Positions 5,507-41,958 of a DNA stretch of 48,506 bases are shown here, piece by piece. Made by a program: the position numbers and the translations under genes. The DNA comes from Patescibacteria group bacterium. Lineage in GTDB: Bacteria; Patescibacteriota; Patescibacteriia; Patescibacteriales; CAYMCJ01. Every line of letters starts with the position of its first letter. The stretch's first letter is position 1. The notes under the pieces are model-generated. The model saw only the letters and a program-made list of their open reading frames with translations, had not been told where the DNA came from and did no database searches. Location: contig JBDRJA010000131.1 of the NCBI GenBank assembly GCA_043815345.1, positions 1 to 48,506 of the forward strand, given 5' to 3'.

Positions 5507-6949
5507 TTATTTCTTAGAATTATCTCTAGTATAATGCCTAGCTCCTCTAAACTTAGTTATCTTGCCGCTATATAAATCAGCTAATTGTTGAATTAACCAT
5601 CTAGCCTCGTCCATGTCTCCTTTTGTGTGTTTATAATGATCAAGTATTAAATCAGTGTTTATCTCTAAAAGCAACTCATAGGCTTTTTTGTCCGGCATAT
5701 CCATAATATTTATTAACATCAAATCTGAATTTTTAAATTTTTTAAAAAAATCCTCTGGCCCCTTTAACTTGCCTTGATCAATTAATTTATAATACAGATC
5801 CGAACCCGGATACGGAGTTACTGGCCTAATAGTACGGCATTGATAATAGGTATTATACTCTTTTATAAATTTGACGTTTCGCCTTAAGGTGCGTTCGTCA
5901 TCCCCTAAATTATTCCAGATAAAATTTAAACCCATACCAACGCCGCCGATATCTTTAATTAATTTAAGAACTTCTATATTCTTTTTAACGGTTGTATTTT
6001 TATTCATTAATTGTAAAACTTTGTCGTCGCTTGACTCAAAACCAATACAAATAAATTGGCAACCGCACCTTTTTAAAATCTCCACAATTTCTTTATCCAT
6101 TATATCAACCCGGGCGTCACAAAGAAATTTAATTTTTAAATTATTATCTTTTAACGCTTGTTCAAATTCTAGAAGCCGTTCTTTGCTAAAAACAAATAAT
6201 TCATCCTCAAAAAGATAGCAGTTAATTCCGTATTTTTCATATAATATTTTTAATTCTTCAATTACATTCTTTATGCTCCTTGCTCTAATTCCTTTTTCCA
6301 TCCGATAACAAAAATTGCACCTATTGATACAGCCTCGGCTAGTAATTATTACCAGACTCTTTTCATGCGGCTCCTGATTATACATCCGGCTACAAGTTGT
6401 ATATTTATCCATGGGGAATATTTCCCAAAGGGGCATTGGAATTTCGTCTAAATTGGTAACTAATTTATTTTGACCGGTTAATTTTAATTCGTTATTATCT
6501 AAATACGCTATTCCTTTTACTTTAGATAAATCGCCGTTTTTGACTTTGCATTCAAGCAGGTCAACAATGGTATTTTCGGCTTCTCCTATGGCTATTATAT
6601 CGGCTTTAGTTTTTTTAAGCATATATTCGGGAATGGGCGAAGGGCCATGGCCGCCAAGGACAAACCAAGCAGTTTTCTTGTTTTCATTAATAACTTTACA
6701 TAAATCTATAATAGTCTCTTTAAATCTCGCTGCTAAAAAACCCAGGCAGATCAAATCATAATTATTTTTTTGTAAAAAATCTGCTAACTGTTGGTTAGTA
6801 TAATGGAACACATCCATGGAATAAGCTTCTACATGAGCGCCATTCTTATTAAGCATTGCCGCCAAATATGCAGGGCCTAAAGGAAAATGATTATCTTCCT
6901 GATAAAGATCATGAATTATAAATAATACTTTATTATTTTTAGTAAACAT
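5507..6949 (-). CDS. B12-binding-domain radical SAM protein (class B rSAM), paralogue 1
   Basis: N-terminal Rossmann-like B12-binding region (VLFIIHD...IAIGEAENT) and CxxxCxxC in SRGCINRCNFCY. Confidence 0.85.
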   Translation of the reverse strand: MFTKNNKVLFIIHDLYQEDNHFPLGPAYLAAMLNKNGAHVEAYSMDVFHYTNQQLADFLQKNNYDLICLGFLAARFKETIIDLCKVINENKKTAWFVLGGHGPSPIPEYMLKKTKADIIAIGEAENTIVDLLECKVKNGDLSKVKGIAYLDNNELKLTGQNKLVTNLDEIPMPLWEIFPMDKYTTCSRMYNQEPHEKSLVIITSRGCINRCNFCYRMEKGIRARSIKNVIEELKILYEKYGINCYLFEDELFVFSKERLLEFEQALKDNNLKIKFLCDARVDIMDKEIVEILKRCGCQFICIGFESSDDKVLQLMNKNTTVKKNIEVLKLIKDIGGVGMGLNFIWNNLGDDERTLRRNVKFIKEYNTYYQCRTIRPVTPYPGSDLYYKLIDQGKLKGPEDFFKKFKNSDLMLINIMDMPDKKAYELLLEINTDLILDHYKHTKGDMDEARWLIQQLADLYSGKITKFRGARHYTRDNSKK

Positions 6950-33603: not shown

Positions 33604-34943
33604 AAAAATTTTTCAAATACATATTTAGGCATATGCTTCAAAATATAGGGCAATCGAAAATAATACGATACAAAGGCTTTTTCTTTTAAATTCAATAAAT
33701 CTTTTTTATCTATATTGTTATGTCGATACACCGGAGTATAAGAATCATATCTTTGCCAATTTGACTCTATAATTCTCTGCTCTTTTGATAATTTACTGTA
33801 GAATTCTGTATTAGGGTAAGGAGTACTAATAGAAAACTGAGCCACTAAAGTATTTAATTTTTGGGAATAATTGATTGTACTATTAATACTTTCCGTAGTA
33901 TCGTCTTCTAGGCCTAGTATATAAAAAGCAGCAATTGAAATACCATTTTTATGACAATATTCAATTATCTCTTCTTGGTGATTGATCTTTATAGGTAAGC
34001 GTCTTGATTTTTTAAGTATCTCTTCGCTAGAAGATTCTATCCCAATATTAAAATTTTTTAATCCAGCGCTTTTCATTGCTTTGATTAAGTCTTTATCAAG
34101 ACAATCTAGGCGAGTTTCGCAAGACCAGGTAATTTTTATTTTTTCTTTTTTTATCTTTTCACATAATTTATATATGCGCTCCTTATCTAAAGTAAAGATG
34201 GCGTCTCGAAAATCTATAGCTTTAATTTTATATTCTTTTTTTAAATATAAAATTTCTTCCATGATGTTATCTACACTTCTGGTTCGCCACATTCTACCAG
34301 CCATAATAGTATAGGGGCAATAATATCGGCAGGTATAAGGACAACCCCGGGAAGTTAGCATAGTTAAGACTGGTTTCTTGTTTAACGCCGGAGAATAGTA
34401 AAATTTATTTATATTAAAAAAATTCCAATCTGGAAAAGGCAATTTATCTATATTTCTAATTAATTCAGCTTCAAATATGCCTTCTGGAATTTTTTTATCT
34501 TCTAATATTTTTAAAATCCCTGATTCTGCCTCGCCTTTTATAACGAAATCTGCATCTTTAGAAAAATATTCAGGCACGGCTGAAGCAAAAGTACCGTAAA
34601 CTCCAACTTTTACACCTTTTTGCCTTATTTTTTTTACTATTTCTAGTTCGTTTTGACAATCTACGATTGAAGTATGTACTAAAGCCAAATCAGCCTGACT
34701 AATTTTTAGATTGTCGTCTTTCACTTCTACTAATTCTACCTCCCAACCAGCTTTCTTAAATATTGCTATTAAATAAGCTAGTGTTATATCAGGTAATATT
34801 ACGTTTCTCTTTTTTACATATTCAAAAATCCTTGCTCGCAAAGAATTACCAACCCAAGTCCTGGTCCCCATTCCTCCAGCTAAATCTTTGTTTACGCACC
34901 CTTTGTCATTTTTGGCTTGTATATCAAATAATAATACTTTCAT
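33591..34943 (-). CDS. B12-binding-domain radical SAM protein (class B rSAM), paralogue 5, with atypical Cx3Cx3C spacing
   Basis: SRGCPYTCRYYCPY and VIKGEAESGIL. ATG 34943 (MKVLLFD) is preferred; the 12-codon extension to 34979 is translation of the intergenic repeat and uses a GTG start. Confidence 0.8.
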   Translation of the reverse strand: MKVLLFDIQAKNDKGCVNKDLAGGMGTRTWVGNSLRARIFEYVKKRNVILPDITLAYLIAIFKKAGWEVELVEVKDDNLKISQADLALVHTSIVDCQNELEIVKKIRQKGVKVGVYGTFASAVPEYFSKDADFVIKGEAESGILKILEDKKIPEGIFEAELIRNIDKLPFPDWNFFNINKFYYSPALNKKPVLTMLTSRGCPYTCRYYCPYTIMAGRMWRTRSVDNIMEEILYLKKEYKIKAIDFRDAIFTLDKERIYKLCEKIKKEKIKITWSCETRLDCLDKDLIKAMKSAGLKNFNIGIESSSEEILKKSRRLPIKINHQEEIIEYCHKNGISIAAFYILGLEDDTTESINSTINYSQKLNTLVAQFSISTPYPNTEFYSKLSKEQRIIESNWQRYDSYTPVYRHNNIDKKDLLNLKEKAFVSYYFRLPYILKHMPKYVFEKFLWPY

Positions 34944-34957
34944 AAATAATACAAATG

Positions 34958-35042
34958 TACAAATAAATACAAATAACACAAATTCTGCTTTTCGAATTTT
35001 ATTTATTTGTGTTATTTGTATTTATTTGTAATTCGTAGTCTT
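34958..35042. repeat. Copy of a dispersed 38-bp AT-rich repeat, arranged as a perfect 26-bp inverted repeat (hairpin)
   Basis: TACAAATAAATACAAATAACACAAAT (34958-34983) is the exact reverse complement of 35005-35030. 35005-35042 matches the 38-bp unit at 39679 and 39724 at 35/38 positions. Confidence 0.85.
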
Positions 35043-35056
35043 ATTTAAATACAAAA

Positions 35057-35080
35057 AAATATAGACTAAAATCTATATTT
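35057..35080 (-). terminator. Candidate weak intrinsic terminator downstream of the Shedu-like gene
   Basis: 9-bp AT-rich stem AAATATAGA / TCTATATTT with a 6-nt loop, followed on the minus strand by a short T-run. Low predicted stability. Confidence 0.35.
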
Positions 35081-35182
35081 AATATTTCTACTATCTTTGT
35101 TTATTATATAATTTTTCAGGGGGGTAAGTCAATGGTGGAATCTTGATGGAAAGTAATCAATCGTATCCGAACTGAAATCTAA

Positions 35183-36394
35183 TTAATTTTGAATAGTTTC
35201 TTTATTTTCTACGATAAACTTAGCTCTTTCAAATAATTCATCATAAGTAATTATTTTTACATTTCTAGAATCTCTGCGGAATAATTCAAAACTTTTAGCC
35301 TTTATTTGACTTTCTTTTAATTCGCCAGCATATTGATTAGAATGACCAATTATTAAAATTGTTTTAGGATCAACTGTTTTCTGTCTAATAATCTCCCCCT
35401 TATCATTAAAGTTATTATTTGCGTTTGATTCAGCCTGTACTTGCCAATCAGCTTTTTGTTCCAGTATTTGAGAAAAAGAGTTAATTAAATCATTAGATAA
35501 GCACCAAGAGTTAGCTCGATTTTGGTTGTTCTTAAACAATGGGGTATTGGGTTTTTTTAATTCAACAAGTGTCGTAAACTTATTGCACCCAAGCAAAAAA
35601 TCGCCAATAACTGCATCTTTGCCTTTTAGATCAGTGTTGGAAATATGAACTTCTTTTTGCAAAATTCCTAAAAATTTATAATCTAACCCATAACCAAATA
35701 TCCAATCATTTTTATTAAAGAAATGTTGCCATGTTATTTCTATTCTAGGATCGGTTATTTGATTTTCTCTTTTATATATATTTATGTAATTAGGATCATT
35801 TAATAATTTATCAAAAATTTCTAATTCCTTCTTTCTATAACCGATATTTACAATATCAGAGGAAGTGATTAAGCCACTATTTAAAAGTTCTTCAATAATC
35901 TTTGGTCCATCTTTCTGAATCAAAAAAGTTTTAATTTTACTTTTTGTTTCATTATCTATTTCTGAAAGATCATCATTAGATAGAGCTATTTTCCTTTCAT
36001 TTATTCCTTCTAAATTTAGGTCGGAAAGAAACCTTAAAAATGCAATTAACTTCTTAAACGTAAAATAAGAAAAAGTAATTTGTTCAGTTTCAACTTCTTG
36101 CCAACCATCATTTTTGTAATGTTTAAATTTTTTAAAAGATATAGAATTAATATCTTTTTGTTTTTTTATAAATGTTAAAGTAATTTTAATACGATTTCTC
36201 TTGGGATAAGGAAAATTAATATCAATTTCCTTCGGTAAACCCGTCTCTTCATCTTCAGTTACAATATTCAAAAACTTTCCCTCTTGATTTTTGAATTCAT
36301 GAGTATAAAGTGTATCGAGATTGGAATTAAAAGCAATATCACTCTCGGATGGTTTTATCTCATTCTCTGATAATAATTTTTCTTTGTTTTCCAT
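35183..36394 (-). CDS. Shedu-like defence nuclease (SduA, DUF4263 PD-(D/E)XK domain) with an uncharacterised ~200-aa N-terminal domain
   Basis: The C-terminal half shows the DUF4263 pattern: YRKKELEIFDKLL, WQHFFNKNDWIFGYG, GDFLL...LVELKKP (D...ExK), ILIIGHS, and the terminal VKIITYDELFERAKF. Confidence 0.7.
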   Translation of the reverse strand: MENKEKLLSENEIKPSESDIAFNSNLDTLYTHEFKNQEGKFLNIVTEDEETGLPKEIDINFPYPKRNRIKITLTFIKKQKDINSISFKKFKHYKNDGWQEVETEQITFSYFTFKKLIAFLRFLSDLNLEGINERKIALSNDDLSEIDNETKSKIKTFLIQKDGPKIIEELLNSGLITSSDIVNIGYRKKELEIFDKLLNDPNYINIYKRENQITDPRIEITWQHFFNKNDWIFGYGLDYKFLGILQKEVHISNTDLKGKDAVIGDFLLGCNKFTTLVELKKPNTPLFKNNQNRANSWCLSNDLINSFSQILEQKADWQVQAESNANNNFNDKGEIIRQKTVDPKTILIIGHSNQYAGELKESQIKAKSFELFRRDSRNVKIITYDELFERAKFIVENKETIQN

Positions 36395-36415
36395 CCTATT
36401 AAAAATTAATTATAA

Positions 36416-36482
36416 GCGGAGAGTGAGGGATTCGCCCCGCCACTTCGCTGTGCTCATCGCGGGGTGCCTCACTAACTTCGGC
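36416..36482. repeat. GC-rich bulged hairpin element immediately 3' of tRNA-Ser
   Basis: GTGAGG (36423-28) pairs with CCTCAC (36467-72). CGCCCCGC (36433-40) pairs with GCGGGGTG (36459-66). Strongly GC-rich against an AT-rich background. Confidence 0.6.
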
Positions 36483-36503
36483 AAACCCAAATATTTTTCT
36501 CTG

Positions 36504-36590
36504 CGGTGAGACTGGGATTCGAACCCAGGGTGCCATTTCTGACACACATGCACTCCAAGCATGCGCCTTCGACCGCTCGGCCATCTCACC
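36504..36590 (-). tRNA. tRNA-Ser (anticodon GGA), class II with long variable arm, no encoded CCA
   Basis: Folded by hand: acceptor GGTGAGA/TCTCACC, D-arm GCC..GGC, anticodon stem CATGC/GCATG with loop TTGGAGT, 5-bp variable arm GTGTC/GGCAC, T-arm CTGGG-TTCGAAT-CCCAG, discriminator G. 87 nt. Confidence 0.93.
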
Positions 36591-36731
36591 TAATTATATA
36601 CATGTTAATGTTTGGGCTTTCCAAGTTTACTCCGCATATGAACGAAGCGAATTGTGCGGGGCAAGTGCCATAGACCCCTAAGCGAACTCTCCCAATTTAC
36701 TCTGAAGCTTAGCTTCATGTATTGCTAACAT

Positions 36732-37370
36732 TTAATATTTCAACAAGTCTACTCTCATATCTTTCAACGCTACATATACTTTAGCTAAAGGCAAACCAAT
36801 TACAGAATAAAAATCTCCTTCAATGCTTTCTATTAGAACTGCCCCCTTATTCATTAAACCATAAGCGCCAGCCATATCCATTGGCTCTCCGGTAGCTATA
36901 TAATTATCTATTTCTTCATCACTTAAATTTCTAAATTTAACTTTAGCCTCGCCATAATCATTAATTATTTTTCCACTCTTAGTATCAATCACCGCAAAAC
37001 CAGTAACCACACTATGTTCTTGGCCAGAAAAATTTCTTAATATATTTTTAGCATCTTCTTCGTCCTTGGGCTGACCAATAAACTTATTGTTAAAAATAGT
37101 GTCATTCGCACGTGCCCCATTTGTAGCGGGGCTTGCCGAAGGCAAAAACGCAAAAGTATCGGCTGATATAATTATAGCATCATCAAAATGTCTAGCCACA
37201 TCTTGCCCTTTACCCAGCGCTAAAAATTTACAAAGCTCAAAAGGGTCACTCTTGGCTTCCATATCCTCCTCATATTCACTTTCTCTAATTTCAAATTCTA
37301 GACCAATTTGCTCAAGCAATCTTTTTCTCCTTGGTGATTTAGAAGCTAAAACTATCTTTCTATCCTTCAT
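36732..37370 (-). CDS. maf: Maf-like nucleoside triphosphate pyrophosphatase (septum formation inhibitor family)
   Basis: IVLASKSPRRKRLLEQIG, ISADT, GQPKDEEDA, GAYGLMNKGAVLIESIEGDFYSVIGLP. Confidence 0.85.
   Translation of the reverse strand: MKDRKIVLASKSPRRKRLLEQIGLEFEIRESEYEEDMEAKSDPFELCKFLALGKGQDVARHFDDAIIISADTFAFLPSASPATNGARANDTIFNNKFIGQPKDEEDAKNILRNFSGQEHSVVTGFAVIDTKSGKIINDYGEAKVKFRNLSDEEIDNYIATGEPMDMAGAYGLMNKGAVLIESIEGDFYSVIGLPLAKVYVALKDMRVDLLKY
37104..37160. repeat. GC-rich palindromic patch lying in frame inside maf (about 57 nt)
   Basis: Hairpins GCCCC(37113-17)/GGGGC(37128-32) and TTGCC(37133-37)/GGCAA(37141-45). Flanked by GACACT/GATACT on the coding strand. Encodes ...LPSASPATNGARAND..., absent from the Maf sequences I recall. 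Confidence 0.5.
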
Positions 37371-39678: not shown

Positions 39679-39759
39679 ATTTGTGTAATTTGTATTTATT
39701 TGTAATTTGTAATCTTCTAAAATATTTGTGTAATTTGTATTTATTTGTAATTTGTAATC

Positions 39760-39761
<2 letters not shown>
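39679..39761. repeat. Two identical tandem copies of a 38-bp AT-rich repeat (7-nt spacer), same family as 35005-35042
   Basis: ATTTGTGTAATTTGTATTTATTTGTAATTTGTAATCTT at 39679-39716 and 39724-39761. A partial third copy (TTTGTAATCTT) follows inside the ligA 3' end. A 16-nt inverted partial copy lies at 39240-39255. Confidence 0.9.

Positions 39762-41958
<2,197 letters not shown>

Follow-up and report, generated by a model that had tools for sequence, protein, structure and literature searches.

A gene that resembles an anti-phage nuclease stands alone between a tRNA gene and a set of glycan genes in the genome of a Patescibacteria bacterium, which raises the question of what it encodes, whether any part of it is new and how it came to occupy this position. 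The initial annotation of the window (by which we mean the whole 48,506-nt stretch of DNA that was analysed) had described it as a Shedu-like DUF4263 nuclease with an unassigned N-terminal domain, possibly a new Shedu subtype, and as a one-gene defence islet inserted beside tRNA-Ser(GGA). The reading that we favour, with a probability of about 85%, is that the gene, here called sduA (Table 1), is a functional-looking type-1 Shedu nuclease of PADLOC subfamily PDLC00392 which was horizontally acquired and now stands by itself, as an accessory gene, at a variable site after tRNA-Ser(GGA) in a Patescibacteria genome.

By sequence, the gene product is a genuine Shedu nuclease (SduA) whose PD-(D/E)xK site is intact. 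Pfam family PF14082 (SduA_C, DUF4263) matched its residues 219-387 at 98.3 bits (cut-off 27; E=6.6e-28), and all of the motifs that had been quoted in favour of a DUF4263 defence nuclease are present in the translation: WQHFFNKNDWIFGYG at residues 222-236, GDFLL at 264-268, VELKKP at 277-282, ILIIGHS at 346-352 and KIITYDELF at 380-388. Among the 2023 SduA models of PADLOC, PDLC00392 (PADLOC-DB 2.0) aligned with the product from end to end (E=2.9e-149, 495.5 bits; residues 13-399 on profile positions 10-393 of 396), and 14 PADLOC SduA models matched it altogether. A search of NCBIfam with the product gave no match, and residues 1-218 matched nothing in either Pfam or NCBIfam. Five residues, E219, D265, E278, K280 and Q309, are invariant in an alignment of 86 relatives and pair, both by sequence and in hhalign, with E204, D249, E264, K266 and Q295 of the Bacillus cereus Shedu protein, which make up motifs I-IV of that enzyme (Gu et al., bioRxiv 10.1101/2023.08.10.552793); defence by the B. 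cereus protein needs D249 and E264 (Gu et al., bioRxiv 10.1101/2023.08.10.552793). The D/ExK core that had been read from the letters is thereby kept in full, five residues out of five, and its loss would have counted against the Shedu reading.

Table 1. Features of the sduA locus, in window positions (strand as given; residue numbers refer to the sduA product)
Feature	Coordinates	Strand	Details
AT-rich inverted repeat downstream of sduA	34958..35030	.	Perfect 26-bp stem, -33.9 kcal/mol, z = -10.2
Promoter-like site TTGACT-18-TATAAT	35103..35132	(-)	11/12 consensus match; between sduA and the radical-SAM gene
sduA	35183..36394	(-)	403 aa, Shedu immune nuclease, type 1 architecture, PADLOC subfamily PDLC00392; basis: ORF, PF14082 and PDLC00392
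DUF4263 PD-(D/E)xK nuclease domain	35207..35788	(-)	Residues ~203-396; E219, D265, E278, K280, Q309
Alpha-helical linker	35798..35953	(-)	Residues ~148-199; model helices 148-159, 163-172, 178-199
N-terminal putative sensor/regulatory domain	35984..36346	(-)	Residues ~17-137, beta-rich (AlphaFold2 model)
GC-rich hairpin in the tRNA-sduA spacer	36419..36475	(-)	MFE -30.8 kcal/mol, z = -2.1 (modest)
tRNA-Ser(GGA)	36503..36590	(-)	ARAGORN; Rfam RF00005, 56 bits; end of conserved gatA housekeeping block

The overall shape of the protein was predicted with AlphaFold2 on the 86-sequence alignment (mean pLDDT 82.8), a model which replaced a version built on 30 sequences that had reached only 61.5. 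It divides the chain into an N-terminal domain, a helical linker and the nuclease domain, an order that, as modelled, is the type 1 architecture of Gu et al. and the type I architecture of Loeff et al. In the N-terminal domain the model places a helix at residues 17-23, strands at 28-33, 39-48, 67-76, 81-93 and 97-100, a second helix at 110-125 and a short strand at 135-137, with pLDDT values of 80-94 everywhere except in the loop 52-64. The linker, in which the sequence alignment with B. cereus Shedu begins, agrees with the linker domains described for both solved enzymes (bioRxiv 10.1101/2023.08.10.552793 and 10.1101/2023.08.10.552762). When the model was compared with the PDB by Foldseek, the significant matches were solved Shedu structures only (the top nine all belong to 8TI8, 8TI9, 8PS4 or 8PS5, with E from 5e-10 to 3e-7), followed by a next match at E 5e-3; the same comparison with viral structures returned nothing at E <=1e-3. 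The structural comparison that the initial annotation had proposed for the N-terminal part was thus run on the whole protein, and it led to a type 1 Shedu layout.

What, then, of the N-terminal domain, which had been put forward as the possible hallmark of a new subtype? No sequence profile ties it to SduA_N, the domain that Pfam assigns to the B. cereus enzyme of known structure: PF21407 was not matched at E up to 1, and an hhalign comparison of the two full-length families aligned residues 172-396 only. With profiles of the N-terminal domains by themselves the alignment was colinear and non-significant (P=0.05, probability 1%). The order of elements predicted in the model, strand-strand-strand-strand(-strand)-helix, is compatible with a Whirly-like beta-beta-beta-beta-alpha unit; such a unit has been described for Type 1A domains (sPC4/Whirly-like) by Gu et al. 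(bioRxiv 10.1101/2023.08.10.552793). The earlier statement that the first ~200 residues match nothing holds for Pfam and NCBIfam (residues 1-218) and fails for PADLOC, where PDLC00392 covers residues 13-399. Since that match runs from end to end, these residues lack an assignment in the two former databases alone and are not new. The N-terminal part is moreover conserved alongside the rest of the protein in alignments of 30 and 86 sequences, and full-length relatives number in the hundreds and come from many phyla, the Patescibacteria copies among them already carrying Shedu names at NCBI. We therefore regard sduA as an ordinary Shedu gene in a catalogued, widespread branch, and the idea of a new subtype is unsupported.

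The extent of this branch is considerable. A search of 5.8 billion proteins recovered at least 1,954 relatives of the sduA product, the full-length matches showing 50-78% identity over 92-99% of the query, and many of them are named "Shedu immune nuclease family protein" by NCBI, from Patescibacteria, Paceibacterota, Nomurabacteria and Shapirobacteria to Rhizobium. An exhaustive search of cluster representatives (50% identity) found 1,675 clusters at E <=1e-3 and 150 at <=1e-30, with alignments that span residues ~10 to ~398 for dozens of the matching representatives. With one genome taken per species, relatives occur in at least 532 genomes, which belong to Patescibacteria lineages, Pseudomonadota, Bacteroidota, Acidobacteriota, Chlorobiota and others, and those of full length are 40-78% identical to the product. 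Phyla are intermixed in the tree of the subfamily. Relatives were also found on 71 plasmids and, by tblastn, in none of 50,697 phage records; in PHROGs it is the nuclease domain alone that matches, to one family of unknown function. As an aside on the alphaproteobacterial branch, Rhizobium-type members (P0086, P0094, P0096 and P0106) carry an extra acidic C-terminal tail, not present in the sduA product, that ends in D-Y-P-F, D-L-P-F or D-Y-P-I and is reminiscent of the SSB C-terminal tip.

The host is a CPR/Patescibacteria bacterium, as the initial annotation had supposed, and an ultrasmall one: the best named relatives of the LigA protein encoded in the window (64-68% identity) come from "Patescibacteria group bacterium" and "Candidatus Falkowbacteria", and the genome measures 1.2 Mb, with 0.7-1.4 Mb in its 60 nearest relatives. 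By marker estimate it is ~69% complete. The remark that little anti-phage defence has been characterised in this group needs to be divided. Shedu itself is not rare there, with DUF4263 above the Pfam cut-off in 23 of 401 evenly sampled Patescibacteria genomes (~6%; 26 of 401 at E <=1e-3); on the other hand, we found no experimentally tested CPR Shedu gene in the literature searched, and very few defence systems have been identified in Patescibacteria according to a 2025 paper (PMC12366544). The gene adds one more documented defence gene for Patescibacteria and has little import beyond annotation.

Within its own lineage the gene is accessory. We found no member of the subfamily in the 60 relatives (same family or order) that were compared, two of which have distant DUF4263 proteins, and the host genome holds a single copy. 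Its composition is foreign, with a GC content of 26.8% (genome median 34.6%) and a GC3 of 19.1%, values that fall in the lowest 2.3% and 1.0%, respectively, of the 523 ORFs of at least 250 aa. On one side it is flanked by genes for a radical-SAM/B12 protein, an epimerase, a GT2 glycosyltransferase and a PMT-like protein, and on the other by those for Maf, GatA, GatC, a PDDEXK_3 protein and LigA, so that it does separate a glycan locus from housekeeping genes as had been described. Its position after the tRNA gene could likewise be reproduced, with 108 intergenic nucleotides (109 in the initial annotation) between tRNA-Ser(GGA), which lies upstream on the same strand, and the start codon of sduA, and with the gene placed between the GC-rich hairpin and the AT-rich repeat hairpin.

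The two hairpins differ in kind. The GC-rich one belongs to no Rfam family and has no second copy in the genome; it is possibly a terminator or processing structure of the tRNA transcript. The AT-rich inverted repeat lies 150 nt beyond the sduA stop codon and is part of a small dispersed family that is not specific to sduA, the palindrome (26-38 bp; 34958-35042) recurring at 39679-39765, C23:11090-11129 and C43:1695-1736. Two copies of this repeat flank the PDDEXK_3 gene between gatC and ligA; it may act as a terminator, a REP-like element or a cassette border. Rfam models run over 34800-36800 detected the tRNA alone. The promoter-like site downstream of sduA is weak evidence for separate transcription of the glycan genes and sduA, and a scan for promoters and terminators yielded a total of sites in the region no higher than in shuffled sequences.

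The comparison of the tRNA-Ser locus among related genomes, which the initial annotation had recommended, revealed variable occupancy with the sduA subfamily in none of the 60, hence not a core gene. The gene order from gatA to tRNA-Ser(GGA) is kept in six relatives and the DNA that comes after the tRNA is different in each, which makes the site a synteny break point, one that is able to hold defence genes. In G013 it is followed by TspO and unrelated genes, in G010 by a second tRNA-Ser and then housekeeping genes, and in G004 by a pair of low-GC genes, one of which encodes an AbiEii toxin. In four relatives the contig (G002:C59, G007:C27, G021:C83 and G020:C149) stops only a few bases from the tRNA 3' end, which suggests that the DNA behind it is strain-variable or repetitive in several lineages. 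The pair in G004 (G004:C142, positions 186-1644 of the extracted locus L030) consists of two genes with a GC content of 27-28%, the second of which encodes the AbiEii nucleotidyltransferase toxin (PF08843, E=1.8e-18); the first has no Pfam match and may be an AbiEi-like partner. Elsewhere in the subfamily, four other members (L068, L070, L083 and L119) also come behind a tRNA gene, at a distance below 700 nt. The last of these, on MAG contig CAYXZA010000005.1 (labelled Candidatus Saccharibacteria), holds a broken copy about 340 nt after a tRNA-Ser(GGA), at 5575-6707, reduced to two ORF pieces (residues 173-194 and 221-397) that lack the N-terminal part; it is a second, independent adjacency of tRNA-Ser(GGA) and Shedu in an unrelated CPR genome.

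A different setting emerges from other relatives, which are often the last genes of restriction-modification (R-M) operons. Five close metagenomic homologues (62-78% identity; P0002, P0023, P0047, P0022 and P0041) each have a restriction gene on the same strand immediately upstream, 2-23 nt away, so that five of the six close relatives examined stand directly behind R-M genes. The upstream systems are of several types: a type III Mod-Res pair for P0002 and P0041, a type I HsdM-S-R set for P0047, an HsdR-like helicase for P0023, and two D12 methyltransferases with an AlwI-type endonuclease for P0022; a transposase, a serine recombinase or AbiEii is found near some of the five. At the locus of P0002 (L039-L044), the closest homologue with 78% identity, a Mod-Res-SduA operon with a small downstream ORF comes after tRNA-Pro(GGG) and an rve-type integrase/transposase gene. 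The P0002 protein occurs in 155 blocks of the collection, and the element seems to be abundant in some sampled environment.

The association extends beyond these five. A co-directional ORF ends at most 200 nt upstream of the gene in 44 of the 68 species-genome loci with enough upstream DNA and is missing from the other 24, and Pfam tallies for the 44 ORFs give Methylase_S 13 times, ResIII 7 times, N6_Mtase/Eco57I 7 times (MmeI 3), N6_N4_Mtase once and GmrSD_N once. From these tallies and the protein sizes we estimate that an R-M gene is the upstream neighbour in some 27-29 of the 68 loci, or ~40%. As 602 of 5,499 Shedu genes were reported within R-M systems by Gu et al. (bioRxiv 10.1101/2023.08.10.552793), the association is already known in general, and it appears to be enriched in the PDLC00392 subfamily. 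The ~40% of loci, set against that general figure, and an N-terminal domain whose fold class is tied to neither of the solved enzymes make it reasonable to choose PDLC00392 for tests of whether Shedu and R-M systems cooperate. The window gene itself is solo and has no adjoining defence gene.

How the gene came to stand alone can be read in more than one way. It could have arrived on an island or cassette that integrated site-specifically at the 3' end of tRNA-Ser, which we hold to be possible, if doubtful. The short distance from the tRNA and the low GC content speak for it, together with the variability of the site in relatives, where AbiEii occupies the matching place in G004, and with the four loci at which subfamily members likewise follow a tRNA gene closely. 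Yet no integrase or recombinase lies between the tRNA and the glycan genes, sduA being the sole ORF of at least 100 aa up to the radical-SAM gene. A 19-nt stretch at 36416-36434 that resembles the tRNA end at 36503-21 (79%, score 18) was considered as an att remnant and rejected: it was equalled by 140 of 500 shuffles and sits on the tRNA side of the gene rather than at its far border. The AT-rich repeat flanks the gene on a single side and has further copies in the genome. With L039 and L053, the closest relatives, the similarity in DNA is limited to the coding region with none in the flanks, and the transferred unit therefore cannot be delimited. With neither an integrase nor an att repeat, the locus is not a demonstrable integrated island. 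What survives of the one-gene defence islet is a lone accessory gene of atypical composition at a variable site; insertion at the tRNA, with no integrase and a copy of the tRNA 3' end at chance level, leaves the islet weakly supported.

A second explanation takes its cue from the R-M neighbourhood and holds that sduA is an orphaned accessory module of an R-M operon, its partner lost or left behind, and is now inactive, decaying or sub-optimal; members of the subfamily would normally stand at the end of R-M operons of type I, II or III, acting on restricted DNA. We think this improbable. The five metagenomic homologues immediately behind restriction genes and the ~40% of loci with a tight upstream R-M gene are in its favour, as is the host genome, in whose assembled part we found neither N6_Mtase nor N6_N4_Mtase and, by tblastn with the R-M partners of the relatives, no match. 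Still, this genome is only ~69% complete, and an R-M system could therefore have escaped assembly. The ORF shows no disruption and keeps all of its catalytic residues, and a solo arrangement occurs elsewhere too: L053, the sister in the tree with 77% identity, is also solo, flanked by genes for UDP-glucose dehydrogenase and a DUF559-type protein and near two tRNAs, and to it may be added the 24 loci that lack a close co-directional ORF upstream. The Shedu proteins of B. cereus and E. coli, moreover, defend as single genes (bioRxiv 10.1101/2023.08.10.552793; 10.1101/2023.08.10.552762). Least probable by a wide measure is a role in housekeeping or repair, as a nuclease of NucS/EndoMS type rather than a defence protein. 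The DUF4263 fold is indeed closest to EndoMS (Gu et al., bioRxiv 10.1101/2023.08.10.552793) and the gene has Maf, GatCA and LigA for neighbours, but a repair gene of this kind is hard to reconcile with a subfamily that is absent from all 60 relatives, with a strongly atypical composition, with relatives in R-M operons and on plasmids, and with a full-length match to the HMM of a defence family, PDLC00392. Our preferred reading remains that of a horizontally acquired, complete Shedu gene that stands by itself.

If sduA is such a gene, its mode of action may be sketched by analogy with the characterised enzymes, from which we infer its oligomeric state, its activating signal and its anti-phage activity in this host. 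A role in protection from phage gains some indirect backing from the accessory distribution of the gene and from the defence genes beside its relatives. The protein would form a tetramer through its DUF4263 domains, in which the N-terminal domain and helical linker would hold the PD-(D/E)xK site (E219, D265, E278/K280, Q309) inactive; in B. cereus Shedu, removal of the N-terminal domain and linker activates the enzyme (bioRxiv 10.1101/2023.08.10.552793). An encounter of the N-terminal domain with a phage-derived nucleic-acid signal would then release the nuclease, which would nick or cut the invading DNA. The signal itself is conjectural, since no kinship could be detected between the N-terminal domain and its counterparts in the two solved Shedu enzymes; free DNA ends would be the most likely candidate and single-stranded DNA an alternative, the former being the most plausible cue given the association of the subfamily with R-M systems. 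A broader and rather unlikely idea is that PDLC00392 constitutes a dedicated 'post-restriction' module, whose conserved N-terminal domain senses the DNA ends made by restriction enzymes of any type. If true, end sensing would explain why the subfamily is appended to type I, II, IIG and III operons, and solo copies would sense the ends of linear phage DNA directly, providing a minimal stand-alone immune gene for ultrasmall genomes.

Among named Shedu systems, the nearest are members of PDLC00392 itself, such as MFA6533986.1, MFO0718780.1 and MCA9353425.1, which come from Patescibacteria and carry the Shedu name at NCBI. The window protein is 60-78% identical to them over at least 95% of its length, N-terminal domain included, and does not differ from them in any substantial way, except that the window copy is solo and many members stand behind R-M genes. 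The Shedu protein of B. cereus B4264 (Type 1A, 8TI8/8TI9) shares with it the nuclease domain, the residues of motifs I-IV and the order of domains. By sequence, the match to 8TI8 has an E of 4e-15 with ~25% identity in the nuclease domain, and 8TI9 is the best Foldseek match (E=4.8e-10, TMt 0.71-0.76 for chains of the nuclease octamer, with TM normalised to target length). The two nevertheless belong to different branches: proteins of the B. cereus type combine PF21407 with PF14082 and fall under PADLOC model PDLC00399, whereas the window protein falls under PDLC00392 without PF21407, and the profile-profile alignment between them stops at the linker. The E. coli enzyme EcSduA (8PS4/8PS5; Loeff et al., bioRxiv 10.1101/2023.08.10.552762), with ~404-408 aa, an N-terminal domain at residues 1-145, a linker at 146-188 and DUF4263 at 195-408, is like the window protein in size and layout. 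Foldseek aligned the two over the whole chain (E=3.5e-8), with a TM of just 0.35-0.38, and sequence searches, including one with a profile at E up to 10, did not detect it, so that the likeness is one of fold alone. At the level of function, the DNA-end sensing of EcSduA would fit the association of PDLC00392 with R-M systems.
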